Virus record (IMG/VR): IMGVR_UViG_3300037245_001295
Span: 1-64,000 of that record
DNA length: 64,000 bases
Origin: a virus
Strand: one strand, 5' to 3'
Made by a program: the position numbers and the translations under genes. Under the pieces are notes generated by a model. It was not told the origin of the DNA, did no database searches, and saw only the letters and a program-made list of their open reading frames with translations. Shown piece after piece: positions 1-53,957 of this stretch. Position 1 is the first letter of the stretch; every line of letters starts with the position of its first letter.

Positions 1-98
1 GTCGGGCGTCGGGCGTCGGGCGTCGGGCGTCGGGCGTCGGGCGTCGGGCGTCGGGCGTCGGGCGTCGGGCGTCGGGCGTCGGGCGTCGGGCGTCGGGC
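1..98. repeat. Perfect heptamer tandem repeat (GTCGGGC)x14, open at the window start
   Basis: Read directly from the sequence. Confidence 0.98.
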
Positions 99-285
99 GC
101 GTAGCAAATCCCATACCAATTGCGCTTATTCCGTTCGTGCTGGTCCTCGGGGTCGGGGCGCTTAGTCCGATTATGCCGATCCTCGGGGTCGTTCCGGTCG
201 TGCCGGCGGGCGGGCGTCGCGCCACGCCGGACCCCGACAATCGGAACATCCGGCATGACCCGCGCCACCCGGCGCTACCCCGACA

Positions 286-1800: not shown

Positions 1801-2200
1801 GAAAGAAACCGAGAAACCGATTAACGGGGTCGTGCCGACTATCGGGGTCGTGCCGATGATCCGGGGGTCGCGACGCCGGGCAACCGGCATGACCCCGACA
1901 ATACCACGCATCCGGGCATCCAGGCCCTACAGGTCATTTTACCATGCTGAGCCCATTCGATCGTAATAAGCCCTACAACCCCGAGCCTGAGGTACTACAA
2001 GCAGGACGACCGGTGCAGGCGGGTAACCGTCATAAGTGGCCTGCACCCTGCCCCCCATAAGTATGACCTTTCCCCCCATCGTGGCTATTGACAGGCATGG
2101 CGGCCCGATTGTGCCGGTCGTGCCGATTATGCAGGCACCCGACAGGATACCCCCTCCATCGGGTGGGGTCGTTGACACCACCCGAAAGGACTACCCCTAT

Positions 2201-2497
2201 TGGGGGTCCACCCCTGTGGGTGGTTGACAAGTCCCCCATCTTTACCCCGCCGTTTGGGGGTCCACCCCTGTGGGTGGTTGACAAGTCCCCCATCTTTACC
2301 CCGCCGTTTGGGGGGTCCACCCCTGTGGGTGGTTGACAAGTCCCCCATCTTTACCCCGCCGTTTGGGGGGAAACGTCATAACCCCGAGAATCAGTACAAT
2401 CGGAACCCCTCCTTCGGGGGGAAACATCATAAGGCCTACAACCCCGATAATCGTTACCCCTCTTCTGGGGGGTCCACCCCTGTGGGTGGTTGACAAG
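2201..2497. repeat. Three tandem 54-55 bp repeats (2201-2363) plus a partial copy (2466-2497)
   Basis: Unit TGGGGGTCCACCCCTGTGGGTGGTTGACAAGTCCCCCATCTTTACCCCGCCGTT read directly. Confidence 0.95.
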
Positions 2498-2661
2498 GCA
2501 CCACAGGTGGGGGTTCTATCGGGTGGTGTCGTTGACACCACCCACAGGAGGGGAAGCGACCAGGATAACCGATACAACCGGCCGCGTGTGGGCGTCTCGC
2601 GGTAGCGCACCCCCCATAGTGACTAGGAATCCCCTCTCCAGAGGGGTTGACAGCCTCACAG

Positions 2662-5250: not shown

Positions 5251-5344
5251 GGGCGGGTGGCGAAATTGGTAGACGCACCCGGCTAATACTGGGTTAGGTG
5301 GTACGCGACCACTACGTATGCAGGTTCGAGTCCTGCCCCGCCCA
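5251..5344 (+). tRNA. Atypical tRNA-Leu-like gene (6-nt anticodon loop CTAATA, about 26-nt variable arm)
   Basis: GGGCGGG/CCCGCCC acceptor, Leu-type D arm GCGAAATTGGTAGACGC, T arm GCAGG-TTCGAGT-CCTGC, discriminator A. Confidence 0.7.
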
Positions 5345-5371
5345 CTTGACAAACACCCGCAGGAGAACAAC

Positions 5372-5882: not shown

Positions 5883-6154
5883 TGAGACCTGTAATGAAGA
5901 AGATCATGTTGTGGACAGTTATTCTGGATGCTGATTATACAGCTTGGCAGCGGAATTTCATGTTTAAGCCCACGTTGATCGACCTCCTCACCATTGTGGA
6001 GGAACAAGCCCAGACCGCAGCAACGGCCCCGCTGTTGGAACTTGTGCGGGGGGCTCAGGGGGTTGACCCCGACATCCATGACTCGGGCAGCTTGACGTAT
6101 CATGCCGAGGGCGGCGTGATATTTATCTACCAAAATGAGGCCATCGCGAAATGA
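5879..6154 (+). CDS. Paralog family A member
   Basis: WTVIL..WQRNFMFKPTLIDLL pattern. Confidence 0.7.
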   Translation: MMRPVMKKIMLWTVILDADYTAWQRNFMFKPTLIDLLTIVEEQAQTAATAPLLELVRGAQGVDPDIHDSGSLTYHAEGGVIFIYQNEAIAK

Positions 6155-6741
6155 ATAACATGCCACCCCTATCAGAACTGATTGCGAGAGCGCGGCGAAA
6201 CCAAATCGTTGTCGGCCTGGACCTGCAACGGCTACTCGGGGAAGCCGAGCGGCTGCAAGAGATCGACCGCGAGCAATTGAAAGGCAAAGCCAAGGACTGG
6301 AAGATTCGCTTAGGCAATCTGGACATGATGGCCGGCGAGATGCTTAGCACCCCCGACGCCGAAGCACTACTCGCCAAGGCACAGGCAGCGAATCTCGCAA
6401 TCAACGAATTGCGAGATTCGCTCAATCTGGCAATATCTGGTGAGGTCGAGGTGCCCATCGAGGTGCCCATCGAGGAGATCAACACGCCAGTGTTGCATCG
6501 GCCGGGGGTGTGGATTACGCCAGTGTTGCAGCGGGCGGGGAGCCGCAAGCGGGAACTCTATAAGGTTCCAACAGGAACGGGTGGGGTTGAGTGGCTCGGA
6601 ACTGTGGTGCCAAACGGAGTCAGGTGGGATTGGTGCCGGCACAATTCAGAGGTATATGACTGGGACGGTGAGCGTGGCGGCACTGAGGACACCTTGGAGC
6701 AAGCGAAGGCCAAAGTCATGGAGGGGTGGGATTCCAAGTAA
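6151..6741 (+). CDS. Hypothetical protein, coiled-coil N-terminus
   Basis: 196-aa ORF, ATGA coupling, ends in shared DSK* junction. Confidence 0.75.
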   Translation: MNNMPPLSELIARARRNQIVVGLDLQRLLGEAERLQEIDREQLKGKAKDWKIRLGNLDMMAGEMLSTPDAEALLAKAQAANLAINELRDSLNLAISGEVEVPIEVPIEEINTPVLHRPGVWITPVLQRAGSRKRELYKVPTGTGGVEWLGTVVPNGVRWDWCRHNSEVYDWDGERGGTEDTLEQAKAKVMEGWDSK

Positions 6742-7040: not shown

Positions 7041-7068
7041 TTGACAAACGCCCGCAATGTGGTATACT
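7041..7068 (+). promoter_or_regulatory. Sigma70-type early promoter driving tRNA-Tyr
   Basis: TTGACA-16-TATACT. Confidence 0.85.
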
Positions 7069-7081
7069 TGTAATAGAACAA

Positions 7082-7165
7082 GCGTCGGTTGGGCATTGGC
7101 AGGCCTCGCTGGCTGTAAACCAGTCATCCTTACGGATCGTGGCGGTTCGACTCCGCCCCGGCGCA
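7082..7165 (+). tRNA. tRNA-Tyr(GTA), CCA not encoded
   Basis: GCGTCGG/CCGGCGC acceptor, GCTGG-CTGTAAA-CCAGT anticodon arm, long variable arm, GGCGG-TTCGACT-CCGCC. Confidence 0.9.
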
Positions 7166-7184
7166 CTAACCCTTGGAGAATAAC

Positions 7185-7379: not shown

Positions 7380-7622
7380 ATGCTTCCTTATATCGCACTA
7401 TGGCTCGCTACCGTGCCAGTGGCCTACTGTCTATTTTACCTGATTTTCAAAAGGCTTGGTTCCTGGAGAAGGGGCGACGTAGTATATTTTACCCTCTTCT
7501 GCGTGGGCTTCGGCCCTGTCGCGCTGTTCATAGCTCTCAAGGAGTTGGCGGACATTTTCACTGCGAAACTAAGAATCCGTAAGGCCTTGTCCGACTGGGC
7601 GGGCCGCTTAGCAAAGTGGTAG
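7380..7622 (+). CDS. Small two-TM membrane protein, family M
   Basis: Two hydrophobic segments; starts MLPYIALWLA, ends W..R.AKW. Confidence 0.75.
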   Translation: MLPYIALWLATVPVAYCLFYLIFKRLGSWRRGDVVYFTLFCVGFGPVALFIALKELADIFTAKLRIRKALSDWAGRLAKW

Positions 7623-7651
7623 AAACCAACAGAACCCAAGGAGAACACAAG

Positions 7652-7891
7652 ATGCTTCCTTATATCGCACTATGGCTCGCCGCCGCAATAGCGGCCTACT
7701 ACCTGTTTCGCTGGGATTGTAAGACGTTTGCGATCTGGATAAACAGTGACGTAATATTTTTCAGCACCATCTGTCTGATCTTTTCCCCTGTCACATTGCT
7801 CGTAGCACTCGTGTGGACGGGCATCCTCGTTATGCAACGAAGTGCCGGAACGAGGTTGTCCAACTGGCTTGACCGCCCATCAAAGTGGTAG
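7652..7891 (+). CDS. Small two-TM membrane protein, family M
   Basis: First 29 nt identical to 7380 gene; ends WLDRPSKW. Confidence 0.75.
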   Translation: MLPYIALWLAAAIAAYYLFRWDCKTFAIWINSDVIFFSTICLIFSPVTLLVALVWTGILVMQRSAGTRLSNWLDRPSKW

Positions 7892-7901
7892 GGAGAACAA
7901 C

Positions 7902-8123
7902 ATGAACGACATCATCGAACTGTGTGACGAATTAGCGTGCAACTTCGCCTACAGCCACCGGCAAGATCGTCTACCGTGGGCGCAAACTCTATATAGACAT
8001 GTGTGGCGTATCGAGGGTGTCAGAGAAGGGGAATCAAATGACGGCCGATCCGAGAGCTTAGCGGATTGCTTACAAGGGTGCAAAAAGTGGTTGCTTCAAA
8101 TTAAGTCCAAGAGATTGGCTTGA
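7902..8123 (+). CDS. Paralog family C member
   Basis: IIELCDELAC..CLQ..LLQIK shared with 9519 gene. Confidence 0.7.
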   Translation: MNDIIELCDELACNFAYSHRQDRLPWAQTLYRHVWRIEGVREGESNDGRSESLADCLQGCKKWLLQIKSKRLA

Positions 8124-8147
8124 CAAACCCGCAGGATAGTGTATACT
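8120..8147 (+). promoter_or_regulatory. Sigma70-type early promoter
   Basis: TTGACA-16-TATACT, identical to 8649 copy. Confidence 0.85.
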
Positions 8148-8167
8148 TGTAATAGGAGGAGACGCGG

Positions 8168-8329
8168 ATGAATTACGTAGTAGCAGGGCTTGAAGGTGTT
8201 GGATTAGGCGTGTTGGCAGTCGTAGCCATCATTACCACCCCGATATGGTTGCCCCTTTGGCTCCTGGGCTATCGTGCGGCCCCGACCAAGTCTCAAATCG
8301 CAGAGCATATCGTAAGGAATTCGCGATGA
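8168..8329 (+). CDS. Small membrane peptide, family T (53 aa, not in ORF track)
   Basis: GGAGG RBS; TTPIWLPLWLLGY motif; stop overlaps next ATG. Confidence 0.7.
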   Translation: MNYVVAGLEGVGLGVLAVVAIITTPIWLPLWLLGYRAAPTKSQIAEHIVRNSR

Positions 8330-8652
8330 ACACAACAAAAATATGGCACGTCGCAGTCAAGACTGACTCAAACTTCAGGTGGCAGGGAATCTTTGCCTTT
8401 GAGCCAACTTTGCTTGACGTTGAAAGCGCCGTACACGGTGCCATCATTGCGGCCGACCTCAAATGTAAACGCAACCGCCCGCCCGATGAGTCTCTCCAGG
8501 AGTATTGGGAGTGTTTGAAGCGAGTCCGAGAAGTGTTGCTCCAGGCGAGTGATCTTTCTGATTACTCTAACTGGCACTCGGTTATGAATGGCCGAGTAGA
8601 AGTTGGCACCATCTATGTGTGGGGAGACAAACTATACACGGAATCCATTTGA
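8326..8652 (+). CDS. Paralog family A member
   Basis: WHVAVKT..WQGIFAFEPTLLDV..VGTI. Confidence 0.75.
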   Translation: MNTTKIWHVAVKTDSNFRWQGIFAFEPTLLDVESAVHGAIIAADLKCKRNRPPDESLQEYWECLKRVREVLLQASDLSDYSNWHSVMNGRVEVGTIYVWGDKLYTESI

Positions 8653-8676
8653 CAAACCCGCAGGATAGTGTATACT
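8649..8676 (+). promoter_or_regulatory. Sigma70-type early promoter
   Basis: TTGACA-16-TATACT. Confidence 0.85.
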
Positions 8677-8695
8677 TGTAATAGAGGAATTCGCG

Positions 8696-8941
8696 ATGAA
8701 CAGAACAAACACAATTTACCTAGTGACGCCTCCCTTTGAACGCCACGTGCTTGAAGGGTTCGCGACCGACGTTGAAGGTATCAAGCAGATTATGCGGAAT
8801 CACTACCACACGCACTTTGCCTACCCCAACATAGACGTGTCCATAGACATGGAAGCTTTGACCGTGACGGCGTCCGCACAACATTACGTGAAAATGTACC
8901 ACATCCGAGTAATCAAGAGGGCCGTATGCTCCACTGCATAG
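8696..8941 (+). CDS. Paralog family B member
   Basis: IYLVTP..LEGFATD.EGI..Y.IR.I. Confidence 0.75.
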   Translation: MNRTNTIYLVTPPFERHVLEGFATDVEGIKQIMRNHYHTHFAYPNIDVSIDMEALTVTASAQHYVKMYHIRVIKRAVCSTA

Positions 8942-9120
8942 AAATCACAGACGACTATCACATGGGCACGGCGGGGCGGCTTTGGGTATTCCTCGACATC
9001 GCGTCAGACATGTTCCTCAAGACGGACTGCGGGCGTCATGTGTTCAACCGCGAGGAGATCGAGGAGCACGCGCGAGTGTCAGAACTCAGGCGACTGATTT
9101 TTGGGGGAGAGAGAGTATGA
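8926..9120 (+). CDS. Small hypothetical protein
   Basis: 64-aa ORF coupled to neighbours. Confidence 0.6.
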   Translation: MLHCIEITDDYHMGTAGRLWVFLDIASDMFLKTDCGRHVFNREEIEEHARVSELRRLIFGGERV

Positions 9121-9374
9121 ACACCATCTACCTCGTGACGCCCAGCTTTTGCCACTGGGAGGGCAAGCTTGAAGGATTTGCGACCGATGCTGAAGGCATT
9201 GAGCAGATTGTCCAGGATCGCTACCTCAAACACTACCACTATCTCGGCCGTCAGCGTATCGGGCCAATCAACGTGCAAGTAGACATGTCTAAGTTCACAG
9301 TATTTGTGCGTGTGCCCAAGATCGGTCATAAACAAACCTACTACATCCGAGAGATCGGGAGAAAGATATGTTAG
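9117..9374 (+). CDS. Paralog family B member
   Basis: MNTIYLVTP..LEGFATDAEGI..TYYIREI. Confidence 0.75.
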   Translation: MNTIYLVTPSFCHWEGKLEGFATDAEGIEQIVQDRYLKHYHYLGRQRIGPINVQVDMSKFTVFVRVPKIGHKQTYYIREIGRKIC

Positions 9375-9514
9375 ACAAACTGTGGTATGACCTCCTGGGC
9401 AATGCGGATGATGTCATTGAAGATGTTCTTCACGGCGTCGGGGTAATTCTTCTCGTACTGACCGCGCCTCTGTGGCTACCGTTTTGGCTCCTTACCTACT
9501 TCATCAACAGGTGA
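9368..9514 (+). CDS. Small membrane peptide, family T (48 aa, not in ORF track)
   Basis: TAPLWLPFWLLTY motif shared with 8168 ORF. Confidence 0.65.
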   Translation: MLDKLWYDLLGNADDVIEDVLHGVGVILLVLTAPLWLPFWLLTYFINR

Positions 9515-9518
9515 TAAC

Positions 9519-9737
9519 ATGACGCCAGAGATCATCGACCTGTGCCTAGAGTTGGAATGCACCTGCTCCTACAACTGTGAATGGCAATACACGGACCGCC
9601 CTGTGCTAAAGCACTGGTGGTACATCGCCAGCATTAGGCCTCGGGAATCCAACTGTTCCATCAACGCCTGCCTAGACTCTTGCTTGCAGACGGCCTTGGA
9701 TTGTCTGAAACAGATCAAAGCCCAGAGGACGCCATGA
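9519..9737 (+). CDS. Paralog family C member
   Basis: IIDLCLELEC..CLQ..LKQIK. Confidence 0.7.
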   Translation: MTPEIIDLCLELECTCSYNCEWQYTDRPVLKHWWYIASIRPRESNCSINACLDSCLQTALDCLKQIKAQRTP

Positions 9738-9789
9738 CCGCAGATGAACTCCGACGCACGAAGGGCGAACGAGCCTGGAGGGACCAGTA

Positions 9790-10062
9790 ATGAACGTGTG
9801 GAAAATCTGCATCGAGACAGTTAATCAATTGTGGTGGCACGAAGCCCCCATCACACCTTGCTGGCAGTATATCCTAGCCGTGCTGCGGGAAGAAATGTCT
9901 GATGACAACAACCTGCACGAATCAATTGAACTTGTGCAATATCTTATGGTGTATCACAGCATAGGATTTGTGGGGACTACGAATAAGGAATTTGTCGCCA
10001 AGATCGCTGGCACCTGCGTCGGCACCGTTGAGATCAGGCGTGTAACGCGGGAGACGCTATGA
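9790..10062 (+). CDS. Divergent paralog family A member
   Basis: WKICIET..W..P..KIAGTCVGTV. Confidence 0.65.
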   Translation: MNVWKICIETVNQLWWHEAPITPCWQYILAVLREEMSDDNNLHESIELVQYLMVYHSIGFVGTTNKEFVAKIAGTCVGTVEIRRVTRETL

Positions 10063-10307
10063 TCGACGCCATCTATCTCGTGACGCCATCCAAGGGATAT
10101 TTGGATGACATTTTTGAAGGGTTCGCGGCCGGTGCCCGGGGCGTTGAGCGAATTGTGCGAGATCATTACCGCACGTATTCATACATCGAGTTGACCAGTG
10201 TGCGAGTCGATATGGACGAGCGTACAGTGGTAGCGATCGAGGAGGACGGCGACGAACGGACCTATTACATCCGAGAGATTAGGAGGCATGCTGATGAACA
10301 AGACTGA
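10059..10307 (+). CDS. Paralog family B member
   Basis: IYLVTP..FEGFA..TYYIREI. Confidence 0.75.
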   Translation: MIDAIYLVTPSKGYLDDIFEGFAAGARGVERIVRDHYRTYSYIELTSVRVDMDERTVVAIEEDGDERTYYIREIRRHADEQD

Positions 10308-10593
10308 ATTTTGGGTAATCCATGTGACGGTCCAGACACTATCGTGGGAAGGTAAATTCACGGCCCAGCCGAAGTTGCGCGATGTACTCGCCGCATTGAC
10401 TGAGGAAAATCTACGCGAACGATATGCCACCTTGATCGAACTTGTGGAATACACCATCAACGTTACCACGGGACACAGTGCGGCGTTCGCCCTCCCAAAG
10501 GCCGTGAAGATCGCGGGCTGTATAATCGGAACATTTGCCTCGCGGATAGACCGGGCGTACAACAACGACCTAGAACTCTCGGAGGCGTGCTGA
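10288..10593 (+). CDS. Paralog family A member
   Basis: WVIHVT..WEGKFTAQPKLRDV..KIAGCIIGT. Confidence 0.75.
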   Translation: MLMNKTEFWVIHVTVQTLSWEGKFTAQPKLRDVLAALTEENLRERYATLIELVEYTINVTTGHSAAFALPKAVKIAGCIIGTFASRIDRAYNNDLELSEAC

Positions 10594-10880
10594 TGGATAC
10601 TGACACAGTCTGGACGGTAACGATTAACTCGCTCGCCCCAGGCGCCCGTGCTTGGCAGCGCCGCTTCCTTGGTAAGCCGATTATCCACGACATCAGGGAC
10701 GCATTGGAACACGAGGGCAAACAGCCAGAGGGTTCGGTCGAAGTCTTCGCTGACCTTGCGTCCCGCCTGCCCGTGTGTTTTCACGAGAAGGCTATGAACG
10801 GCCGTGGCTACATTATCTATGCCGCCCAGGTCGAAATTGGCAGCGTCAGTCTCAAGGAGTGGGAGGTTTACACGCGATGA
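10593..10880 (+). CDS. Paralog family A member
   Basis: WTVTI..WQRRFLGKPIIHDI..EIGSV. Confidence 0.75.
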   Translation: MDTDTVWTVTINSLAPGARAWQRRFLGKPIIHDIRDALEHEGKQPEGSVEVFADLASRLPVCFHEKAMNGRGYIIYAAQVEIGSVSLKEWEVYTR

Positions 10881-11173
10881 GACGAGTGACTTACTGGAGA
10901 GTGATGGTCTACATCATAGCCTCACGCACGACTTGGACTCGGAGCTTCGGATTCAAGCCAATGATGGAGGACATCCTAAATGCCCTCTACGCAGAGTGGA
11001 ACGGAGGTGCGCCGTGGTCAAAGCTATGCCGCGACCTCAGGTTGTTTGTCGCAGTTGCCGACCGTGCCCCGTTCGATTTTTCCGACGACTCCGGCACCCA
11101 CTGTGTCGTAGAAATCGAGGACACCCCCGTTGGCCATATCCGCATGAAGAAAGAGGAGATGTACACACGATGA
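10877..11173 (+). CDS. Paralog family A member
   Basis: WRVMV..WTRSFGFKPMMEDI..VGHI. Confidence 0.75.
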   Translation: MRRVTYWRVMVYIIASRTTWTRSFGFKPMMEDILNALYAEWNGGAPWSKLCRDLRLFVAVADRAPFDFSDDSGTHCVVEIEDTPVGHIRMKKEEMYTR

Positions 11174-11481
11174 ACATACTACCGAGTAAGACTTACGTGT
11201 ATGAAGTGACCCTGGCGACGACTAACGGTCCAAACTGGACCCGAAGCTTCACGTTCGACCCGACCCTAGCAGACATCGTGGCCACGTTGAAACTTGAGGT
11301 GAAGTATTCAACCTTCTGCGCTATTGGGCGATACCTGAAACGGCTGATTGAGCTAATAGATTACATCCCCAACGGGTCGAACTGGGCGGTGCGAAGCGTT
11401 CCCTACGCTATCAGTGCTGTCGGGACAACGCTCGGAACCATTTATCGCAGTAAAACGGAGGCGTACGAGAAATGCAAGTAG
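11170..11481 (+). CDS. Paralog family A member
   Basis: YEVTLAT..WTRSFTFDPTLADI..LGTI. Confidence 0.75.
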   Translation: MNILPSKTYVYEVTLATTNGPNWTRSFTFDPTLADIVATLKLEVKYSTFCAIGRYLKRLIELIDYIPNGSNWAVRSVPYAISAVGTTLGTIYRSKTEAYEKCK

Positions 11482-11798
11482 CAAAGACGTGGAAAGTTTC
11501 TGTCGCGACAGTCCACAACGGCGAGTGGAAGGGGATATTCCTCTTCCAACCAACCAGTCAGGATGTGATAAACGCCATCTCAGGCGTCATCACAGACGGG
11601 CAGCGGGAGTTGGAGCGGTGCGATCCCGGAGACGCGGACGAAGTTGAATCCTATCAGGAACGTCTACGGCATTTGCGAGACGTGGCGCAGCACGCGATGC
11701 ACGGCTTCGCGAACACGGAAGTCCGTAAGCGGATTCTCGTAGCGGGCACCCTTGTTGGAACCATCCGAGTATCCTTTGAACGAGCGTTTATCAAATGA
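11472..11798 (+). CDS. Paralog family A member
   Basis: WKVSVAT..WKGIFLFQPTSQDV..VAGTLVGTI. Confidence 0.75.
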   Translation: MQVAKTWKVSVATVHNGEWKGIFLFQPTSQDVINAISGVITDGQRELERCDPGDADEVESYQERLRHLRDVAQHAMHGFANTEVRKRILVAGTLVGTIRVSFERAFIK

Positions 11799-11944
11799 AC
11801 AACAGCAACACGAACGTAATAGTACAGTCTGTGATCGACTTGGCCAAGGCGGCTAAGCTAGCCTTGGAGATCGTGTATGAGAGAGAACAGGCCCGCCTGG
11901 ACAAAGCCATCGCGGATGGCGAGGAGCTATTGAAAGATGCCTGA
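11795..11944 (+). CDS. Small helical hypothetical protein (49 aa, not in ORF track)
   Basis: ATGA coupling to upstream gene; fills the gap. Confidence 0.55.
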   Translation: MNNSNTNVIVQSVIDLAKAAKLALEIVYEREQARLDKAIADGEELLKDA

Positions 11945-12245
11945 ATTCGAGAAAGACCCCAGCGGACAGGCGAGTTGCCGCAACCGCGTAGTATGCAACG
12001 ATGATCCGTGGTCCAAGGATGACTGTGCGAAGTTCAAAAGATACTGCCGCTACAGCGAGGACTGCCGAGTCCCGATCCCGGTGAAAGAGGGGATTAAGGT
12101 GGAAATACCGCCGCGTGACTGGCTGCTGGCACGATTAGGGGCCACGGGCGGAATCGCCCCAGAGTATGGCATCGCCATGCTGGACAGAATCGAGCAACTG
12201 GAACGTGACCTGGGGGTGGCAAATGAAACCAGCAATCGCACATAA
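11937..12245 (+). CDS. Cys-containing hypothetical protein, family D
   Basis: SCR.R..DDP..C..C.Y.EDCRV.IP shared with 12543 gene. Confidence 0.7.
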   Translation: MPEFEKDPSGQASCRNRVVCNDDPWSKDDCAKFKRYCRYSEDCRVPIPVKEGIKVEIPPRDWLLARLGATGGIAPEYGIAMLDRIEQLERDLGVANETSNRT

Positions 12246-12546
12246 GGTGACTGTCTCCACGCGGGGCGGCAATGTATGGGCCGGGCGATTCGTGGGGAAA
12301 CCGACGCGCAAAGACGTAGTCGCCGCCATTCAGTACGGCATTGACGCAGTCGTGAAGAATTTGGGTAAAAAGTGCGGGGACATAGGTTACTATACGTGGC
12401 GGCTGCGTGAGGCTTTGGAGATCATGGCGAATGCACCGTCCTACTTCGCCATGGATGATCGCGAGTACAGAATCGAGGTGGGAGCCACTTTGATCGGGAC
12501 GATTCAAACCCTCAGGTGTACGGTGTATATTGAGGACGCAGAATGA
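12223..12546 (+). CDS. Paralog family A member
   Basis: HKVTVST..WAGRFVGKPTRKDV..VGATLIGTI. Confidence 0.75.
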   Translation: MKPAIAHKVTVSTRGGNVWAGRFVGKPTRKDVVAAIQYGIDAVVKNLGKKCGDIGYYTWRLREALEIMANAPSYFAMDDREYRIEVGATLIGTIQTLRCTVYIEDAE

Positions 12547-12866
12547 TCGAACATCAACAAGACGCCGATGGAGTCGTAAGTTGCAGGTACCGACTACCGC
12601 CGGACGACGACCCCAACACAATAGGGTGGTGTATGTTGCGTAAGGAACCCTGCCAGTATTGCGAGGATTGCCGAGTCACGATCCCGACAAATCTCTCGCT
12701 GGTAGTCAATGCAGCGGAGGAACTGGTGACGGCTTCGCACGAGCTTGTGGAGATCATGGTGGACCTGGGCTACGACCGCGAGGGAAGCTGCCGCGAAGAC
12801 TTGGACGCAGCACGGAAGGCACTGACCACTGTCAAAGCTATCCTCAAACATCAGGAGGAAGCGTGA
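12543..12866 (+). CDS. Family D mosaic protein
   Basis: N-half like 11937 gene, C-half like 15140 gene. Confidence 0.7.
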   Translation: MIEHQQDADGVVSCRYRLPPDDDPNTIGWCMLRKEPCQYCEDCRVTIPTNLSLVVNAAEELVTASHELVEIMVDLGYDREGSCREDLDAARKALTTVKAILKHQEEA

Positions 12867-13001
12867 ACGCCACCGAGAGAACGAAGTTCCGAAAGCATCT
12901 GGAGTGGGCCACTAAGATCGTAGCAACGTGGCCGCCCTGGAAGCGCAACCTGCTGGAGGACAGTCTGAAATCAACATGCCCGAGACGCGAGGGAAGATAC
13001 A

Positions 13002-13406
13002 ATGAAAGCTTCAGAAGCAAAAGCAGCCGCAGCTAGGATTAGGGACATGCGGAAGAAGAAAGCAGAAAGAGATCACAAAGAATGGCAACAAAGAGAGAAA
13101 AAACGAATAGCAAAAGAGAGAAAAGAGCGGCTTGAGTGGTGGTCAGAGGTGGGCTGGGCTGACCTCCAGAAACGCATCAATAAGGCTGTGGGGGAGGGTA
13201 AGACTCATATTTTACGGGAATGGATCAGACTTGCTATGGGGGGATTGCCTGATGAGATTGTGGACCGACTCAGAAAAGATGGTTTTCAAGTAGAATCCGG
13301 CCTCGAAGGTGGTCCAACTCCGTGTGACCCCGGTTGTGGGGACTATTTCCCCTTTTACAAAATCAGTTGGAAACATCCAACGTCAGAGACAGACAATGGA
13401 CAATGA
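13002..13406 (+). CDS. Hypothetical charged protein
   Basis: 134-aa ORF with RBS. Confidence 0.7.
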   Translation: MKASEAKAAAARIRDMRKKKAERDHKEWQQREKKRIAKERKERLEWWSEVGWADLQKRINKAVGEGKTHILREWIRLAMGGLPDEIVDRLRKDGFQVESGLEGGPTPCDPGCGDYFPFYKISWKHPTSETDNGQ

Positions 13407-13776
13407 CTGCGAACGGCCCACGGTGGCTGATCTCATAACCAGGATGAACGATCATACAACAGACAAAGACCGCCCATTCACCGGCCAACCGCATACACAC
13501 CAGGGCCAACGCGGCAAGACCATGGTTGGGGGGATTAGGTTTAGGGATTTGGCCGATTGTGTTGCACGGGCCTTTGTCCACTCGGCTGGATTCACACTTG
13601 ATGACCCTGATGTGATATACGGACGGGCTGAGGATGGTACGCTCAACTACAATGACCTACACGATCTGGATTTATCTCGGATGGACCCAGTAGCATTGAT
13701 TCAAAACACGGTCTGCGAAGTTGAGAAAGCAATGGGGATATACCCGAACATTGAGGCCAACAATGGACAGAAGTAG
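13396..13776 (+). CDS. Hypothetical phage protein
   Basis: Coupled ORF in operon. Confidence 0.7.
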   Translation: MDNDCERPTVADLITRMNDHTTDKDRPFTGQPHTHQGQRGKTMVGGIRFRDLADCVARAFVHSAGFTLDDPDVIYGRAEDGTLNYNDLHDLDLSRMDPVALIQNTVCEVEKAMGIYPNIEANNGQK

Positions 13777-13966
13777 CGACTACTCATTGGAAGACACGTA
13801 CCAATGGTTGAAAAAGGAATTTCCCGCTATACGGCCTACCGGTATAGATGTCTTGGCGGAAGCCATCACGGAGAAGCTCGCCAGGGCTTACAGGAACGGA
13901 CGGGACGACGGCCGGGCAACAGCGGCCGAGGACATCATCAAGACCTCGACGAGACTTTACCCATGA
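13763..13966 (+). CDS. Small hypothetical protein
   Basis: GAGG RBS; coupled. Confidence 0.6.
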   Translation: MDRSSDYSLEDTYQWLKKEFPAIRPTGIDVLAEAITEKLARAYRNGRDDGRATAAEDIIKTSTRLYP

Positions 13967-14175
13967 AACATGCAGAACCCACAGTCGATCACTTAGAGCG
14001 AATAGCCGACTACGAAACTACATCCGTCTACAACTTCATATCACTGCGGCATGTGCTCGACTTCTTTAAGGAGCGGGGGGTTGATCTTGACGACGTCTTT
14101 ATCGAAGGCTCATACGGCGGAAGCAGCCCTACTGAGGACGACTGCCCGGTATTTACTTGGAGGCACCCACAATGA
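13963..14175 (+). CDS. Small hypothetical protein
   Basis: ATGA overlaps on both sides. Confidence 0.6.
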   Translation: MKHAEPTVDHLERIADYETTSVYNFISLRHVLDFFKERGVDLDDVFIEGSYGGSSPTEDDCPVFTWRHPQ

Positions 14176-21696: not shown

Positions 21697-22356
21697 ATGC
21701 CACAATCAACGCCCGAATCCAAATTTCCTGATTCAGTCTGGGATGGCCTTACATCCACCACAGAGGATGTCAGCGTTGATAAGACCCCTGATAACGTAAT
21801 GGGCAACCGGCTTCGGGCGGAAATCCGTGGCGTTGAAACGTCCATGCAGCCTTTCATCGCGGACCTTACGGTCATCAACACGTACGGCTCTCCTGCCACG
21901 GTGCTGACGGTAAACGCTCTCGGCACAGGGCTCGAATGGGCGGCTAGCAGTGGTGGTGGTGGCAGCGTCATCGAACTGACAAATGACAACGCAGGGACGC
22001 TGGTTATTGGCATGGCCGTCTACGTGAAATCGGACGGCGACATGGACAAGGCGCAAGCCGATGCGGCCGGGACTACGGAGCTTCTCGGACTCGTGGCAGA
22101 TACGACCATTCTCACAACTGCGGACGGCGACGTGCAGGCCGATGGCTTCCTGGAAGCGACCACAGGCCAGTGGGACGCAGTCACAGGAGATGTGGGCGGG
22201 CTGACAGCAGGGGGCATCTACTACTTGGACCCCGACACGGCGGGGTTACTCACCAGCACAGCCCCAACCACAGTAGGACAGTATGTTGTACGTGTGGGTC
22301 AGGCGATTAGTACAACGGTAATGAACATTCGCATCGAGCAACCGATACTGCTATGA
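21697..22356 (+). CDS. Capsid fibre/decoration-like protein
   Basis: G.AVY..A.A..GL..GLTAG..YYL..G.LT.TAP..VG.A pattern. Confidence 0.6.
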   Translation: MPQSTPESKFPDSVWDGLTSTTEDVSVDKTPDNVMGNRLRAEIRGVETSMQPFIADLTVINTYGSPATVLTVNALGTGLEWAASSGGGGSVIELTNDNAGTLVIGMAVYVKSDGDMDKAQADAAGTTELLGLVADTTILTTADGDVQADGFLEATTGQWDAVTGDVGGLTAGGIYYLDPDTAGLLTSTAPTTVGQYVVRVGQAISTTVMNIRIEQPILL

Positions 22357-23480
22357 CATACATAAAACCCTTAGTAACATCGAACGGTAGGTTGGAAGCA
22401 CTCGCTGCTGGCGATTTTGTCAGCCCCGGCTCCTTCCCCCTGTGGGATACGGACGCCCTGGCTTGGACTGCCTTCAGAGAAGCCCTCAGCAATTGGATTC
22501 CGATCCATCGGCCGCAATGGACTAAGAAGGGTGTAGAGCTTGGGACCGTTGGTGCGGGCTCGGATGATTGGTACGGCGGGGTTGTAGCTCCCAACGGTAT
22601 CATCTACGGGATTCCCTACGATAGCACCACAGTGCTCAAGATAGACCCGAGCGACGATTCAACCTCGACCTTTGGCAGTATTGCTGGCGGCGCTAAGTAT
22701 GCTGGCGGCGTCCTTGGCTCGGATGGCCTCATCTACTGCATCCCGTATGATGCGACGGCTGTGAGGAAGATCGACCCAAGCGACGACTCGATGGCAACCA
22801 TCGGCACGCTCTCTGACTCCGCGATGTACTTTGGTGGTGTGCTGGCTGCCACGGGGGTCATCTACGGAGTGCCGCATGGTCAGGCGACTATTTTGAAGAT
22901 TGACGGTGACACCGTCACGGAAATCGGCACCATCGCGGGCGCAGGTAGTAAGTACGCCGGGGGTGTGTTAGCACCAAATGGCCTCGTCTATTGTATGCCT
23001 TACACCAACACCGACATTCTTACGATTGACCCGTCAGACGATTCAACCGCAGTCTTTGGCACCGTGGCTGACGGCACACACATGGGCGGCGTGCTAGCCC
23101 CGAACGGCTGTATTTACTCGCCACCGTACGGAGCCACATCCATCCTCAAGATTAACACGCACGATGACACCTTAACTGAGTTCGGCACCTTCAGCAGTAG
23201 CGCGATGTATGTCGGAGGGGCTTTGGCACCGAACGGCAGAATCTATTGTGTTCCGAGAGATGAGAACACAATTCTTGAGATTGATCCCGAGACAGACACA
23301 TATACCGAGTGGGCTGACTTCGGTGAGACGGCTAATAAATGGGTTGGTACTGTACTTGCACCCAATGGCTGCATCTACGGCATCCCGGCCGATTTCACGA
23401 CCTTCCTAAAGATTGGTGAAAACTTGGACAGCGTACTGTTGGATCAAGTGTTGTCACGCCACAGTAACAACGCGATATGA
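22353..23480 (+). CDS. Seven-repeat beta-propeller protein 1
   Basis: 7 copies of GG(V/A)LAPNG.IY.IP-like repeat. Confidence 0.8.
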   Translation: MTYIKPLVTSNGRLEALAAGDFVSPGSFPLWDTDALAWTAFREALSNWIPIHRPQWTKKGVELGTVGAGSDDWYGGVVAPNGIIYGIPYDSTTVLKIDPSDDSTSTFGSIAGGAKYAGGVLGSDGLIYCIPYDATAVRKIDPSDDSMATIGTLSDSAMYFGGVLAATGVIYGVPHGQATILKIDGDTVTEIGTIAGAGSKYAGGVLAPNGLVYCMPYTNTDILTIDPSDDSTAVFGTVADGTHMGGVLAPNGCIYSPPYGATSILKINTHDDTLTEFGTFSSSAMYVGGALAPNGRIYCVPRDENTILEIDPETDTYTEWADFGETANKWVGTVLAPNGCIYGIPADFTTFLKIGENLDSVLLDQVLSRHSNNAI

Positions 23481-23490
23481 GGGTGGAAAC

Positions 23491-23733
23491 TTGAACATAT
23501 ACAAAGTGACCCATGAAGAACGTTTGGCGATAGAAGCCTTGAACGAGGTAAGCACCAACAACCTAGTCATCGTATGTGACACTGAGGAACACGGCTGCGT
23601 TATCTGTGCGGACGACATCAACAAGCCCGTATTCGTTGAGCATCGTAAACTACTGCCCCTTACTTTGGATTCAGCAAAGATTGTCGAGCTTGTCGAGCTA
23701 ACAGGGATAGATGACGTAGAGCCCAAAAAATGA
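23491..23733 (+). CDS. Small hypothetical protein
   Basis: Between propeller genes; TTG start inferred. Confidence 0.55.
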   Translation: MNIYKVTHEERLAIEALNEVSTNNLVIVCDTEEHGCVICADDINKPVFVEHRKLLPLTLDSAKIVELVELTGIDDVEPKK

Positions 23734-24872
23734 CCTACCATAATCCACTAACGATTTCCGACGGCGGTTTGCAAAAGCTCCAATCAGGAGACTTGGTAGC
23801 CAAGGGTGATTTTCCGGCCTGGGAAACCGATGCGCCGGGCTGGGACCAGATGCGGGAAGCGATTAGTGTACGAGCCGGAGCAGGACGCGCTCAAATGAGT
23901 CTCACCACATCGACGTTCGGCACCTTAACAGCCAGCGATCAAGCCGCCGGGTGCGTGCTAGCTCCTAACGGCTACATTTATGGTATCCCCTTTGATGCGG
24001 GCGTTATGATGAAAGTAGACCCGTCCAATGATACGGCGTCAACATTTGGTAGCCCAGGGGTTGCAGGCTCAAAATGGTGCGGCGGCGTGTTGGCCCCCAA
24101 CGGCGTAATATACGCCCCGCCTTATCATAACGGTACAATTTTCAGACTAGACACCAGTGACGATTCGTTCACGTCATTTGGCTCATACCCTGGGACACAA
24201 CAATATCTCGGGGCCGTGCTTAGCGATGCTGGCAAGGTCTACTGCATCCCGAACAACAGTGAACGGGTTATAAAGATTGATCCCAGCGACAGTGATTCAC
24301 ACGGGCTAGTTGGCACTACTTATCCAGCAGCGGGTTTGAAGTGGAGTAGTGGAGTTTTGGCCCCGAACGGGTGTATTTACGGCATACCGAGGAACTGGGC
24401 GGGAGTTCTAAAGATAGACACCAGCGACGATACGACTTCTACAGTTGGTACCCTTTCTAGCGACGGCGAGAAGTGGTGGGGCGGAGTCTTAGCCCCCAAT
24501 GGCTGCATCTACGGGATTCCATATTACGCTACCTCCGTCCTGAAAATTGACCCCCGTGACGATACGATCACTACCTTTGGCAGCCTAAGCGGCGCTGCTA
24601 AATGGAAGGGCGGTGTGCTGGGTTCAGACGGTTGTATCTACGGGGTTCCGTGGGCTAGTCAAACCGTCCTGCGAATTGATCCAACCAATGACACAGCCAC
24701 CACATTTGATGCCTTAGAGGCAGGAACCCAGAAGTGGTGGGGCGGCGCACTTGCACCTAACGGTGCCATTTATTGTGTACCGCACGACGCAAATTACGTG
24801 TTAAAATATGGCACCGGAGTGTCGGGCGTGTCCGAGGATTTCTGCCTATCACGGTACTTCAACAAGCACTAG
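23730..24872 (+). CDS. Seven-repeat beta-propeller protein 2
   Basis: 7 repeats; N-terminus paralogous to 22353 gene. Confidence 0.8.
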   Translation: MTYHNPLTISDGGLQKLQSGDLVAKGDFPAWETDAPGWDQMREAISVRAGAGRAQMSLTTSTFGTLTASDQAAGCVLAPNGYIYGIPFDAGVMMKVDPSNDTASTFGSPGVAGSKWCGGVLAPNGVIYAPPYHNGTIFRLDTSDDSFTSFGSYPGTQQYLGAVLSDAGKVYCIPNNSERVIKIDPSDSDSHGLVGTTYPAAGLKWSSGVLAPNGCIYGIPRNWAGVLKIDTSDDTTSTVGTLSSDGEKWWGGVLAPNGCIYGIPYYATSVLKIDPRDDTITTFGSLSGAAKWKGGVLGSDGCIYGVPWASQTVLRIDPTNDTATTFDALEAGTQKWWGGALAPNGAIYCVPHDANYVLKYGTGVSGVSEDFCLSRYFNKH

Positions 24873-28611: not shown

Positions 28612-30279
28612 ATGGGCGAGTTACAGGACGCATTCCGGGAAGCGGTCGCAGAAGGCATGAGAAGCCGCACTATGACCTCACCGTCTCGATGGGCCTGTAA
28701 TAGGCGTGTCATGGGCGGGAACTTTCCAGGGCCGTATGGGTACGGAGCACACCCGTGGTGTAAGGAGATTCAGGACGCAACATCAGCATACATCGTAGCT
28801 ATGAAGGCCGCACAAATGGGCGTCACCGAAGTCGCCATCAATCAAGCCTTTTATGTTGTGGACGTGCTACGGAAGGATGTCCTGTATGTCCTCCCAACTT
28901 TAAGCAACGCCAGTGACTTTTCCAAGGCCCGGTTTAACACAGCACTACTGTACAGCCCGTACTTGGATCAACTTTTCACGGACACTAACACCGTTGGATT
29001 GAAGCAGGCAGGTGGAGTTAATCTCTACATCAGAGGCTCGCGTGGCGACTCGAACTTGAAGTCGGTCCCTGTCTCGACGCTCATCCTTGATGAAGTAAAC
29101 GAGATGGACCAGAAGCAAATCTGGTTGGCTTTGGAAAGGTTGTCAGGATATGACAAGAAGTCAGTGATGGCCATATCCACGCCGACCATTCCTAAGTTTG
29201 GAGTCCACAAACTTTATGAGCAAGGGTCGCAAGAGCACTACATGTTCAAGTGCCCACACTGCGGACGGATGACAGAGTTAGTGTGGCCAGATTGTTTTGA
29301 ACTAATCGGTGAGACTGTTTCCGACCCACGTTGCAAAGAGTCTTACCTGAAATGTAAGGAATGCGATCACAAACTTAGCCACAAAAATAAAGCTGAGTGG
29401 CTTAACCTAGATAACTGTAACTGGGAATCGACGGTGCGGTGCGATGAAGATTTTCGCAGCTTCCTAATCAACCAGTTGTACAGTTACACAGTGTCCCCAG
29501 GGGAAATTGCAGTAGCACATTTCAGAGGTCTGGGTGATGAAGCTGCAATGGTTGAGTTCCACAATTCAAAGCTAGGCCAACCGTATGTACCGGCAGGTGG
29601 TTTAGTCACAGACACCGAACTTGAACGTGCGGTCGCTGGGTACACGAAGAATGACGCCAGACCGGCATTTGGAGGCGACAGGTGCATTTGCATGGGGATT
29701 GACCAAGGTAAAGTAAACAACATCGTCGTAATGGAATATTTCTTTGATCGGTTTGACCACGACTTAAACGCCGCTGCGTTTGGAAAGCTGTTGTGGGAGG
29801 GCAAGGTTCCTGGCGACGATTTTGAACATCTCGATAAATTGATGCGAGAATGGCAAGTCTTGGCCTGCGTAATAGACCCCGATCCACAGATCAATGATGC
29901 CAGACGGTTTGCACGACGCTTCCCAGGTTACGTTTATCTGTGCCGATACCGAGCAGGGGTTACTGGCAAAGAACTGCAACTTAGCGAGGAAGACGGCGGC
30001 GCACCTATAGCTACTGTTGACCGAACTAACTGGTTGGACGCGGCCCTTGGGCGTTTTCATAGCGGGCGGATTCAAATTCCCGCTGACACAAGTTTAGAAT
30101 TCAAAACGCACATGAAGAATGTAGTCAGAACCTATGAGAAGGACAGCTTGAACAACCCCCGAGCCGTCTATATCAACACCGGCGCCGACCACTTTGTGCA
30201 TGCCCTTACATACGCAGAAGTGGCCCTACCGCTCGCAGCGGGAATCGTCACTAACAAAGACATTGGAGCGTTCTTATGA
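28612..30279 (+). CDS. terL: Terminase large subunit (GpA-like)
   Basis: KAAQMGVTE Walker A variant, LILDE Walker B, ISTP, Zn ribbon, MGID nuclease, DHFVHA. Confidence 0.92.
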   Translation: MGELQDAFREAVAEGMRSRTMTSPSRWACNRRVMGGNFPGPYGYGAHPWCKEIQDATSAYIVAMKAAQMGVTEVAINQAFYVVDVLRKDVLYVLPTLSNASDFSKARFNTALLYSPYLDQLFTDTNTVGLKQAGGVNLYIRGSRGDSNLKSVPVSTLILDEVNEMDQKQIWLALERLSGYDKKSVMAISTPTIPKFGVHKLYEQGSQEHYMFKCPHCGRMTELVWPDCFELIGETVSDPRCKESYLKCKECDHKLSHKNKAEWLNLDNCNWESTVRCDEDFRSFLINQLYSYTVSPGEIAVAHFRGLGDEAAMVEFHNSKLGQPYVPAGGLVTDTELERAVAGYTKNDARPAFGGDRCICMGIDQGKVNNIVVMEYFFDRFDHDLNAAAFGKLLWEGKVPGDDFEHLDKLMREWQVLACVIDPDPQINDARRFARRFPGYVYLCRYRAGVTGKELQLSEEDGGAPIATVDRTNWLDAALGRFHSGRIQIPADTSLEFKTHMKNVVRTYEKDSLNNPRAVYINTGADHFVHALTYAEVALPLAAGIVTNKDIGAFL

Positions 30280-35510: not shown

Positions 35511-35834
35511 ATGGAAATACTTTTTGCAGCAGCAGGTTCGGAAATGCTGACAGAATTACTCGCCAACTTTGGTCCTCTTGTCGGCATTGTGCTGTTTTTC
35601 ATTTGGCGCGATTGGAAACGAGAAGACGCGCTTTCCACAAGAGTTGAAAAACTCGAAGACTACCAGCGAGACACTTTGTTCAGTCTGGTAGAACGGTCTA
35701 CAACAGCTTTGGCCCAAAACGCAGAATGTCTGAGTTGGGTTGCACACGTAATGGAGCGGCTCTGTAACCGCTGTCCATACATCGAAGCAAGTGACGCACC
35801 TGAAGGAGTCAGAGATGTTGAGCGGCGTAAATAG
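35511..35834 (+). CDS. Single-TM protein with coiled coil (holin-like or hypothetical)
   Basis: FGPLVGIVLFFIWRD..RE then helix. Confidence 0.6.
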   Translation: MEILFAAAGSEMLTELLANFGPLVGIVLFFIWRDWKREDALSTRVEKLEDYQRDTLFSLVERSTTALAQNAECLSWVAHVMERLCNRCPYIEASDAPEGVRDVERRK

Positions 35835-53115: not shown

Positions 53116-53352
53116 CTACCATTTAGCTGACCCCTCCAGCCACCTCACAACCCTCTGGGCCATGGAGAAACGCCAGCTTATGTATGCCAGTATCCAGACA
53201 ACTGTTGTTACAGGTCCAAAGAGGAGGCTAACAATAAAGCAAGAGAGGCGATCAAAGTTGGTCCAAGAGTTATACGCCCGCCGCCAATAGGCTTGCATAA
53301 GTGTGTAAGATGTGACGCACAAAATCAACCACAAAATCAAGAACATCAACAT
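53116..53352 (-). CDS. Small two-TM membrane protein, family M
   Basis: GGAGG RBS; W..D..FGPV..WLEGSAKW matches 7380/7652 genes. Confidence 0.7.
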   Translation of the reverse strand: MLMFLILWLILCVTSYTLMQAYWRRAYNSWTNFDRLSCFIVSLLFGPVTTVVWILAYISWRFSMAQRVVRWLEGSAKW

Positions 53353-53353
53353 A

Positions 53354-53957
53354 TCAACCTCCAAACGCGGACAGCATTGCTTTGTACACCTTAGCTTCTG
53401 TAATTGCATCGCACAAGGCATCATGCGGTTTGGGATTCACAATCCCAAACCGTTTTGCCATTGCCTTCAGGCCGGGATATGGGAACGGCGCACTCAGACC
53501 ATGGAAGGTCGCCGCATCGTTGATGCTCAGAGCAAACAGCATGGAGTCCCGAGGGTGGTAGTGGAAGAATTGATTGAAGGACTCCAGCCCCAGCCAGTTC
53601 ATTAGGAATCCCCGCTCGAAAGCCCAGTTGTGAGCCAGAGGCACCAACCGCCTGTCGAACGGTAAGTTCAACGACTGCAACCACTCGTCAAACAAATCAG
53701 CCACCTTCCAAGCGTCTGGGCAGTTATTCATCAGTTCTTCGATGTTCAAGCCATGTACGGTCTGGGCTTCGGCCTCGCACCGCTCCGGCCTCTCTGGGGC
53801 TATGTCCATATAGAATGGAATGATGTCCGGCACGGGCTCGATTGAACTCGTAAGTGGCACCACAGCAATCTGGATAATCTCGTGGTAGCCCGCGATCCGC
53901 CCTGTCGTCTCTACGTCCACAGCGGCGAGCATGTGGCCATTCAGGTTCAGTAAGCTA

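Follow-up and report, generated by a model that had tools for sequence, protein, structure and literature searches.

How does a tailed phage come to hold six families of small genes, their members scattered among one another, in one tight block near the left end of its assembled genome, and what might such a block do? The block in question spans positions 7380-12866 of the window, by which we mean the whole 64,000-nucleotide (nt) stretch analysed here, the first 64 kb of a 124,740-bp IMG/VR virus record (IMGVR_UViG_3300037245_001295; G000) that is rated 100% complete. G000 encodes a large terminase (TerL; 28612-30279), a portal, a major head protein and a 1,435-amino acid (aa) tape measure protein, and is therefore taken to be a tailed phage. 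Its TerL is only ∼25% identical to those of the best-matching named phages, and blastn against 50,697 GenBank phage records gave no nucleotide match for the region. Among public sequencing runs, those in which the stretch occurs are recorded as marine-sediment metagenomes, and no RNA run was listed with them. The explanation that we favour, with confidence a little better than even, is that the block is a lineage-specific, probably early-transcribed accessory island that has evolved through ancient duplications, gains and losses of single genes, and exchange at junctions, and whose products bind host targets.

The open reading frame (ORF) list and its translations place 21 genes in the block, all on the + strand and all starting with ATG, in the order M M C [P] T A [P] B x B T C A B A A A A A y D A D, where each letter is a protein family and [P] a promoter cassette; the gene string read in the first-pass annotation matches this exactly. 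Family A is present eight times, B three times, and M, C, T and D twice each, while x and y are singletons. The earlier annotation gave two to nine copies per family; eight copies of A lie inside these coordinates and a ninth (A0), like a third M, sits outside them. Coding sequence makes up 96.7% of the block, 13 of the 20 gene junctions overlap, mostly as ATGA, so that neighbours are often translationally coupled, and a GGAG-type ribosome-binding site (RBS) precedes most of the starts. Elsewhere in G000, paralogy among small proteins is rare.

That the families are real, and truly interleaved as first proposed, is supported by three lines of evidence. All-vs-all blastp among the 21 proteins joins M1 with M2 (40% identity, E 2e-18), C1 with C2 (36%, E 2e-10), T1 with T2 (46%, E 3e-8), the B proteins with one another (36-45%, E 2e-12 to 9e-17) and D1 with D2 (42% over the N-terminal 55 aa, E 3e-11), while the A pairs form a connected network (E 6e-14 to 1e-3). 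As a control for chance, family hidden Markov models (HMMs) were run against the 2,433 six-frame ORFs of at least 30 aa in the 124,740-bp genome, where the best non-family ORF for C, T, B and D scored E 0.29 or worse. Leave-one-out profiles of family A returned the omitted member as the top non-training ORF in nine of nine cases, A0 included (E 1.8e-14 to 1.6e-5). A possible tenth A lies beyond the window, at genome position 64075-64377, with a weak score (E 0.009-0.38). Two minus-strand ORFs, at 10179-10784 (201 aa) and 12094-12621 (175 aa), overlap the array; both are probably shadows of + strand genes, and they were discounted because plus-strand orthologs and profiles account for the region.

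The families also have recognisable sequence characters, by which M and T are taken as membrane families and A, B, C and D as soluble ones. The M proteins are ∼80 aa long and basic, with hydrophobic windows covering most of the first 57-65 residues, and the T proteins, of ∼50 aa, contain one hydrophobic segment that ends in P-x-W-L-P-x-W-L-L-G-Y. Four cysteines are kept in the C family and likewise in the D family. In D1 the four-cysteine segment (window 11970-12100) behaves as an insertion that the ortholog on a related contig, L086, lacks, and in D2 a homologous segment is joined to a different C-terminal half.

A metagenome scan recovered two contigs that bear such an array, L085 and L086. 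From profile hits and ORF maps, the order on L085 is C B B B T A y D (zinc-ribbon ORF) A D. On L086 it begins M A (repeat protein) T (tRNA) A orf63-like A B B B .. T, where the orthologs of M2 and A3 lie to the left of the tRNA, and continues after the second T as A B x A .. A .. D A (zinc-ribbon ORF) D .. HD, the last being a gene for an HD hydrolase. The families thus co-occur and interleave in all three array-bearing sequences (G000, L085 and L086). The “D A D” end is kept in all three; other order and copy number differ among them, from which we conclude that reshuffling, also part of the original proposal, did happen. Amid this end, L085 (1576-2133) and L086 (6943-7215) hold a CxC...CxxC zinc-ribbon-like ORF that G000 does not have. 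On L085 it shares a reading frame with the D1 ortholog, and the C-terminus of that ortholog runs on in a different one, an arrangement that is possibly a frameshift or a fusion.

The closest relative by TerL, G001 (88%), runs collinear with G000 as far as 5.7 kb and once more from 16.3 kb onwards, and has ∼350 bp in place of the 10.6-kb block, keeping one T-like gene. In G002-G005 (TerL 61-78%, two of them complete) none of the six families was found save for one weak B match (E 6e-5), and the A profile found nothing in G001-G005. The complete 106-kb record G006 (TerL 59%) carries a single A gene, with the M, C, T, B and D families all absent, and A can therefore exist without the other families. 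This gene lies in another promoter-dense stretch, beside a very acidic Trp/Asp-rich ORF. That ORF (L115 10252-10542; ∼97 aa) directly follows the single A, is extremely acidic and rich in Trp, Asp and Glu, and is itself followed by four copies of G006's own TTGACAT..CTATACT promoter motif; its composition presumably resembles that of DNA-mimic anti-restriction proteins.

Further afield, ten more distant A proteins occur on ten contigs, all of different size, which suggests single copies there. Six contigs (25,047, 32,249, 13,988, 9,558, 9,417 and 4,651 nt) seem, from matching sizes, to bear several families. Neither A7 nor the A5 sub-family yielded a match in scans of IMG/VR, and the search for P0029 gave no locus. 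On the sequences compared, the expansion and the co-occurrence are features of one sub-lineage, and A can occur alone.

The paralogs are 16-48% identical in protein, and the longest DNA repeats between copies are 18-31 nt, at 68-84% identity. We placed the A copies in a quick maximum-likelihood tree of 82 rows, for which a careful search is unfinished, from which we dropped one fragment, five proteins that were long or had two domains, the spurious repeat protein and any representative identical to a window copy. The ten G000 copies are unclustered in this tree, with 6 label changes vs a shuffled mean of 6.5, and so do not group by genome. Seven of the ten (A0, A2, A3, A4, A5, A6 and A8) fall into clades with sequences from other contigs at a Shimodaira-Hasegawa-like approximate likelihood ratio test (SH-aLRT) support of at least 95, with A0 in a starred clade together with P0036, P0045 and P0068. 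A1 and A7 fall into other-contig clades at support 80-82, and the possible tenth A sits on a long branch and is unplaced. One lineage-specific sister pair was seen, the L086 copies at 2397 and 2866 (support 94).

Orthologs of array genes in L085 and L086 are 37-70% identical with their frames intact, and the flanking HD hydrolase is 78% identical. A rough ratio of nonsynonymous to synonymous substitution rates (dN/dS) came to 0.20-0.65 in 12 of 12 computable array pairs vs 0.16 for the HD gene, one further pair giving no computable value. The copies thus appear to be old, individually maintained and fast-evolving, with no recent accordion among them. The first-pass term “gene accordion”, in the sense of a recent expansion in copy number, is contradicted by the low identity, the short repeats and the lack of clustering by genome. 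Its companion idea, duplication of a whole multi-gene unit, fares no better: A1 and A2, which would be partners in two C-T-A-B units, lie in different major clades, at weak support.

Transcription of the block appears to be organised by a repeated promoter cassette, which consists of TTGACA, 16 nt, TATACT, then TGTAATAG and an RBS. As a 36-nt pattern, TTGACAAAC..GTATACTTGTAATAG, it occurs four times in the window, at 4963, 7041, 8120 and 8649, whereas none is expected from 100 shuffles, and the two [P] marks of the original string are copies of this sigma70-like element. A 15-nt core of the cassette has ∼15 copies genome-wide, six of them in 3.9-8.7 kb. Five 11-of-12 matches to the sigma70 consensus occur on the + strand in 1-17 kb; the cassettes at 7041, 8120 and 8649 are 11-of-12 sigma70-like, by consensus match only. 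The stop codons of C1 and A1 are each a TGA inside the -35 hexamer of the following cassette, and none of the nine terminator-like sites in 1-17 kb adjoins a cassette. From the positions of the cassettes, the region reads as three putative units: 7041 to tRNA-Tyr, orf63, M1, M2 and C1; 8120 to T1 and A1; and 8649 to the genes from B1 to D2 and further on. A motif so near the consensus, and of host type, makes early transcription the natural inference.

Similarities at the junctions suggest where genes may have been exchanged. A1 and B1 both start behind the junction AGGAATTCGCGATGAAC, 96% identical over 25 nt, and the starts of A5 and A6 have the junction ..TACAC.CGATGA in common. We compared the stretch with contigs of metagenome runs, among them X1 and X2, at a likeness of at least 80%. 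Variant contigs of X1 join at cassette edges (4590>7081, 6154>7033, 7077>5894 and 6736>4566), others skip genes (8347>9529 in X1, 8329>8935 in X2), and two from X1 skip part of D1 overlapping the Cys-rich segment (11926>12096 and 11946>12100). The breakpoints of G001, at 5.7 and 16.3 kb, are not at cassettes. The variant joints weakly fit recombination at short shared regulatory junctions, similar to that of the promoter-early stem-loop (PeSL) cassettes of T4-type phages.

Database searches left the proteins without annotation. For the 21 block proteins and eight neighbours there was no above-threshold match in Pfam, PHROG or NCBIfam; of the 21, none has a PHROG match at E≤0.001, and every weaker row, up to E 0.1, is a family without a known function. 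No Pfam domain was found in twelve longer or fused family A proteins. DUF7716 was considered for A and rejected, as one of 68 members touches it at E 0.005, below the cut-off, and the DUF7716 model finds nothing in the genome. Among PDB sequence profiles the best A match had E 0.057, and there was none for B. Among 1.84 billion representatives, a profile of the nine A paralogs matched 78 proteins at E≤1e-3, 17 of them at E≤1e-10. The 78 include at least six copies from the window itself, an apparently spurious 731-aa repeat protein and two tandem A-A fusions (P0035 and P0055). B and T are far rarer than A, with 19 and 7 proteins, respectively, in 5.8 billion clusters, and their matches sit on the same handful of contigs.

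The structure of family A is predicted with confidence. The AlphaFold2 (AF2) model of A7, built on a 68-row alignment, has a predicted local distance difference test (pLDDT) score of 95.4, a predicted template modelling (pTM) score of 0.85 and a beta-beta-alpha-alpha-beta-beta topology. Foldseek searches with this model gave at best E 0.16 and a template modelling (TM) score of ∼0.3 against the PDB, and at best E 0.01 and TM ≤0.42 against BFVD. A wide VIA-align scan reached Z 8.1, but over residues 26-76 only, the helical hairpin; a missing structural match does not prove a new fold. The conserved columns (W7, V9, W19, G21, F23, P27, A35, L65, V90, A91, G92, I95, G96 and I98) are almost all hydrophobic, Gly or Pro, the only polar ones being D31 (65%) and E70 (57%), and the loop between the helices is rich in insertions and deletions (gap fraction 0.22-0.66 at positions 45-58). 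Because there is no invariant residue of catalytic type, the core is hydrophobic and the loop is variable, we infer from the model that A is a compact binding scaffold rather than an enzyme. The model of B (pLDDT 80) matched at best E 0.07 in Foldseek (ERH, TM 0.37) and Z 5.5 over 49 residues in VIA. For D2 the best feature score in the ESM Atlas was 0.81, under the lead level. A prediction of the T1-A1 complex scored 0.00 and, made without controls, is not evidence either way.

In its layout, the block is most readily compared with the host-takeover module of Bacillus phage SPO1, in which small early genes, served by strong promoters and RBSs, are described as clustered at the terminus; some of its products are toxic to the host and some interact within operons (PMC6873191). 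As in that account of SPO1 genes 37-60, ∼20-26 small genes, dispensable or accessory in character, cluster near a genome end and are divided among several short operons that have strong promoters of host type and good RBSs (PMC6873191); in the block the end is a possible one, the operons are putative and the promoters are predicted from the consensus. The patchy presence of the block among relatives is a further likeness. The block has no sequence relationship to the SPO1 module, in keeping with the empty PHROG result, and no terminal redundancy was detected in G000; early expression and host toxicity have been shown for SPO1, whereas the block is known from its sequence. To our knowledge, the SPO1 module has not been described as interleaved paralog families.

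The hyperplastic regions of T4-type phages offer a second comparison, in which recombination between early-promoter motifs is described as shuffling modules (PMC2839356). There too, repeated sigma70-like early promoters lie among small non-essential ORFs of unknown function, and insertions, deletions and replacements between close relatives concentrate in these regions (PMC2839356). The T4-type cassettes pair the promoter with a terminator stem-loop, whereas those of the block are promoter-only, with the upstream stop in the -35 hexamer, and 15 of the 21 array genes have no cassette between them.

It is the SPO1-like layout that leads us to favour an early accessory island with host-target binders. 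Under this explanation, the families would have grown by ancient tandem duplication and then diverged, in a birth-and-death manner, and single genes would have been moved, gained and lost by recombination at promoter cassettes and RBS/start junctions. The block would be read early in infection by the host RNA polymerase, and its products would be small, non-enzymatic binders of host targets that serve takeover, anti-defence or exclusion. Specialisation would have given every retained paralog its own target or target variant, and the membrane families M and T would act at the envelope. Host takeover or exclusion would be a reasonable reading of position and promoters.

Several observations weigh against this explanation. 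The label “early” stands solely on promoter consensus and position, and promoter-like sites in 1-17 kb number 19 vs 11.5 ± 3.8 in shuffles, ∼2 standard deviations. Blastn found no repeat common to the left 8 kb and the right 20 kb of the genome, so an SPO1-like setting of terminal redundancy is unsupported. The presence and absence of the families in relatives is effectively one lineage event and not independent co-variation. Synonymous divergence (dS) of 0.5-1.8 is near saturation, which is why the dN/dS values are rough. Each variant joint is one contig at a depth of 3-6, some with sides of less than 30 nt, and joints at 80% likeness can stem from other organisms or repeats, which makes them weak evidence. 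Lastly, no known anti-defence, takeover or exclusion protein was matched by sequence or fold, the closest anti-defence hints (AcrIE2, Z 4.6, for B; AcrIIA15, E 1.4, for A) lying within noise.

Of the competing explanations, an artefact of chance ORFs or a chimeric metagenome assembly is scarcely credible. The source is a metagenome assembly, and X1 is rich in related variants of 80-95% likeness, but perfect-match contigs from X1 tile 8655-10615, 10586-11926 and 12184-14075 with no other letters, L085 and L086, which are independent contigs, show these families in matching local orders, and the profile statistics back the families. It is also very improbable that the block is a recent adaptive accordion, amplified under selection as in poxvirus K3L, whose copies should be little diverged. 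Five A genes do stand in tandem (10294-11798), copy numbers vary among the three arrays and L086 has its one sister pair; the divergence of the paralogs, a longest DNA repeat of 31 nt at 68-84% and the pairing of seven of the ten G000 A copies with orthologs from other contigs, with 6 label changes against 6.5, largely refute it. Among the papers listed by a literature search on gene accordions in phages, none concerned a phage gene array, and a search on paralogous small early phage proteins found nothing pertinent. The genes could instead be selfish passengers of promoter-bounded units, like PeSL mini-circles, of little benefit to the phage. Repeated cassettes bound some of the units, variant joints fall at cassette edges, the closest relative is without the block, and the mechanism is documented for T4-type phages (PMC2839356). 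We nevertheless consider this improbable, as the region has only three cassettes with 15 of the 21 genes after the last one and none between them, no stem-loop partner was found, the orthologs at 37-70% identity are under purifying selection, and there is no homing endonuclease or recombinase within 7380-12866.

More serious, if still doubtful, is the suggestion that the families form obligate cognate sets, with fixed partners across families (T anchoring or neutralising A, D-A-D, or a toxin and its antidote), such that the mosaic consists of duplicated modules. Counting protein-coding genes only, T is followed by A in four of five cases (T1 in G000, the T of L085, and those at 2055 and 4255 in L086), the exception being T2 of G000, where C2 intervenes before A2. 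A promoter on either side marks off T1 and A1, which overlap by ATGA, as a unit of two genes; all three array-bearing sequences preserve D, A, D in that order and have the families together; and SPO1 products encoded within one operon are described as interacting functionally (PMC6873191). However, A occurs alone in the complete G006 and a T-like gene alone in G001. Since A makes up eight of the 21 genes, the four adjacencies have a chance estimate of ∼7%, from cases that are not independent; A1 and A2 are not sisters (weak support), contrary to a duplicated C-T-A-B unit; and the co-occurrence may reflect shared descent. The first-pass suggestion of cognate sets in host takeover or exclusion therefore keeps some support, from the T-then-A adjacency, the coupling of T1 with A1 and the kept D-A-D, and is weakened by A being found by itself in G006 and being common in any case.

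Returning to the accessory island, its kind is already known, namely a variable early-region gene block in a large phage. What is unusual here is the presence of six interleaved, wholly unannotated families, of up to ten old paralogs in the largest one, A, whose domain as a whole has no structural match, and of promoter-only junction cassettes. The multigene families at the ends of African swine fever virus and the accordions of poxviruses likewise make variable terminal regions that are thought to serve host interaction, and the block recalls them in its interleaved, unrelated paralog families of varying copy number between isolates. Those are eukaryotic viruses with unrelated proteins, and poxvirus copies are recent and near-identical, whereas the copies in the block are old. 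Phage anti-defence and anti-CRISPR islands hold small, fast-evolving, unannotated early proteins with patchy presence and often novel folds. The block resembles them as a cluster of small, unannotated, fast-evolving proteins that is patchy among relatives, and differs in having no known anti-defence match and no anti-CRISPR-associated regulator in the block. One could go further and propose that A is a new fold class of phage binding domain that has radiated, within one phage lineage, into 8-10 specialised paralogs, for which the natural A-A fusions suggest a possible action as homo- or heterodimers, and that together with B, C, D, M and T it forms the phage counterpart of the terminal multigene families of eukaryotic viruses, each copy neutralising a different host defence or factor variant. 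We hold this extension to be unlikely and offer it tentatively.

The coordinates of the block genes, their cassettes and the dispersed members are collected in Table 1.

Table 1. Genes of the block, associated promoter cassettes and outlying family members, in window coordinates
Feature	Position	Strand	Remarks
A0	5894..6154	+	Ninth family A paralog, outside the block; HMM E 3.1e-6, best non-training ORF of 2,433
Promoter cassette	7041..7076	+	Directly upstream of tRNA-Tyr and orf63-M1-M2-C1
tRNA-Tyr (GTA)	7082..7166	+	ARAGORN; begins 6 nt after the promoter cassette
M1	7380..7622	+	80 aa, basic; hydrophobic windows over residues 1-57; probably two transmembrane helices
M2	7652..7891	+	M1 paralog (40%); L086 ortholog 52% identical
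C1	7902..8123	+	73 aa, soluble, Cys-containing; TGA stop within -35 hexamer of next promoter
Promoter cassette, first [P]	8120..8155	+	
T1	8168..8329	+	53-aa single-pass membrane peptide; motif P-x-W-L-P-x-W-L-L-G-Y
A1	8326..8652	+	Start overlaps T1 stop (ATGA); TGA stop within next -35 hexamer
Promoter cassette, second [P]	8649..8684	+	Next + strand copy of the motif only at 77 kb
B1	8696..8941	+	Family B, ∼80 aa
x	8926..9120	+	Singleton in G000; L086 ortholog E 3e-9
B2	9117..9374	+	AF2 model pLDDT 80
T2	9368..9514	+	L085 ortholog 69% identical
C2	9519..9737	+	8 Cys; L085 ortholog 58% identical
A2	9790..10062	+	Most divergent A; leave-one-out E 1.6e-5; clade with P0034, support 100
B3	10059..10307	+	
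A3	10294..10593	+	
A4	10593..10880	+	
A5	10877..11173	+	Orthologs 54% (L085) and 47% (L086) identical
A6	11170..11481	+	
A7	11472..11798	+	Modelled copy; beta-beta-alpha-alpha-beta-beta, pLDDT 95.4
y	11795..11944	+	49-aa singleton; L085 ortholog 55% identical
D1	11937..12245	+	Four-Cys N-terminal segment
A8	12223..12546	+	L085 ortholog 70% identical
D2	12543..12866	+	Four-Cys N-terminal segment in common with D1; L086 ortholog 55% identical
M3	53119..53355	-	Dispersed third M; HMM E 5e-4; 15 invariant alignment columns including terminal K-W

The block sits in a promoter-dense stretch, 7-13 kb in from the left end of the contig, and its surroundings contain further repeats. The contig starts, at window 1-105, with ∼14 tandem copies of the heptamer GTCGGGC, and G001 starts at the collinear position with a different short C/T-rich repeat; the heptamer array may be a real genome end or an assembly break. 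At window 2195-2526, a 55-66-nt repeat containing GGGGGTCCACCCCTGTGGGTGGTTGACAAG is present in three copies of 95-100% identity and one of 65%, and may be a regulatory or origin-like array. A second tRNA gene of the early region (window 5251-5345, 95 nt) was given no anticodon assignment by ARAGORN. The 196-aa protein encoded at window 6151-6741 ends in a module, ..YKVPTG..EWLG..W.WCR..DTLEQAKAKV.EGW, that has one copy in G000 and occurs ∼4 times over two adjacent genes of L086 (631-2003; tblastn segments and L086 translations), a copy-number change at the level of the domain. The structural region holds three large, repeat-rich paralogs, 44-52% identical (window 22353-23480, 23730-24872 and 35791-37503), and relatives hold many internal repeats of that module. 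Among the TerL relatives are a 63.5-kb contig binned to an Anaerolinea metagenome-assembled genome (MAG; 66% identical) and a contig of a Planctomycetaceae MAG (59%), L087 and L088, and one A homolog (P0026) bears a Planctomycetota MAG name. Binning of phage contigs is unreliable, so the MAG names are weak hints only and no host is claimed.

It is in variable blocks of small early genes that phages carry their means of takeover and counter-defence, and most of the genes in them have no known relatives. This block, which in an uncultured phage is for now of value as a lead, supplies six unannotated families, including a confidently predicted A domain with ∼70 relatives in public metagenomes. 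The 8-10 diverged A copies in one genome are a comparison set in which the variable surface, and with it the binding target, may be sought. The arrangement also indicates that a phage early region can evolve in the form of interleaved multigene families of long standing, besides swapping single genes.

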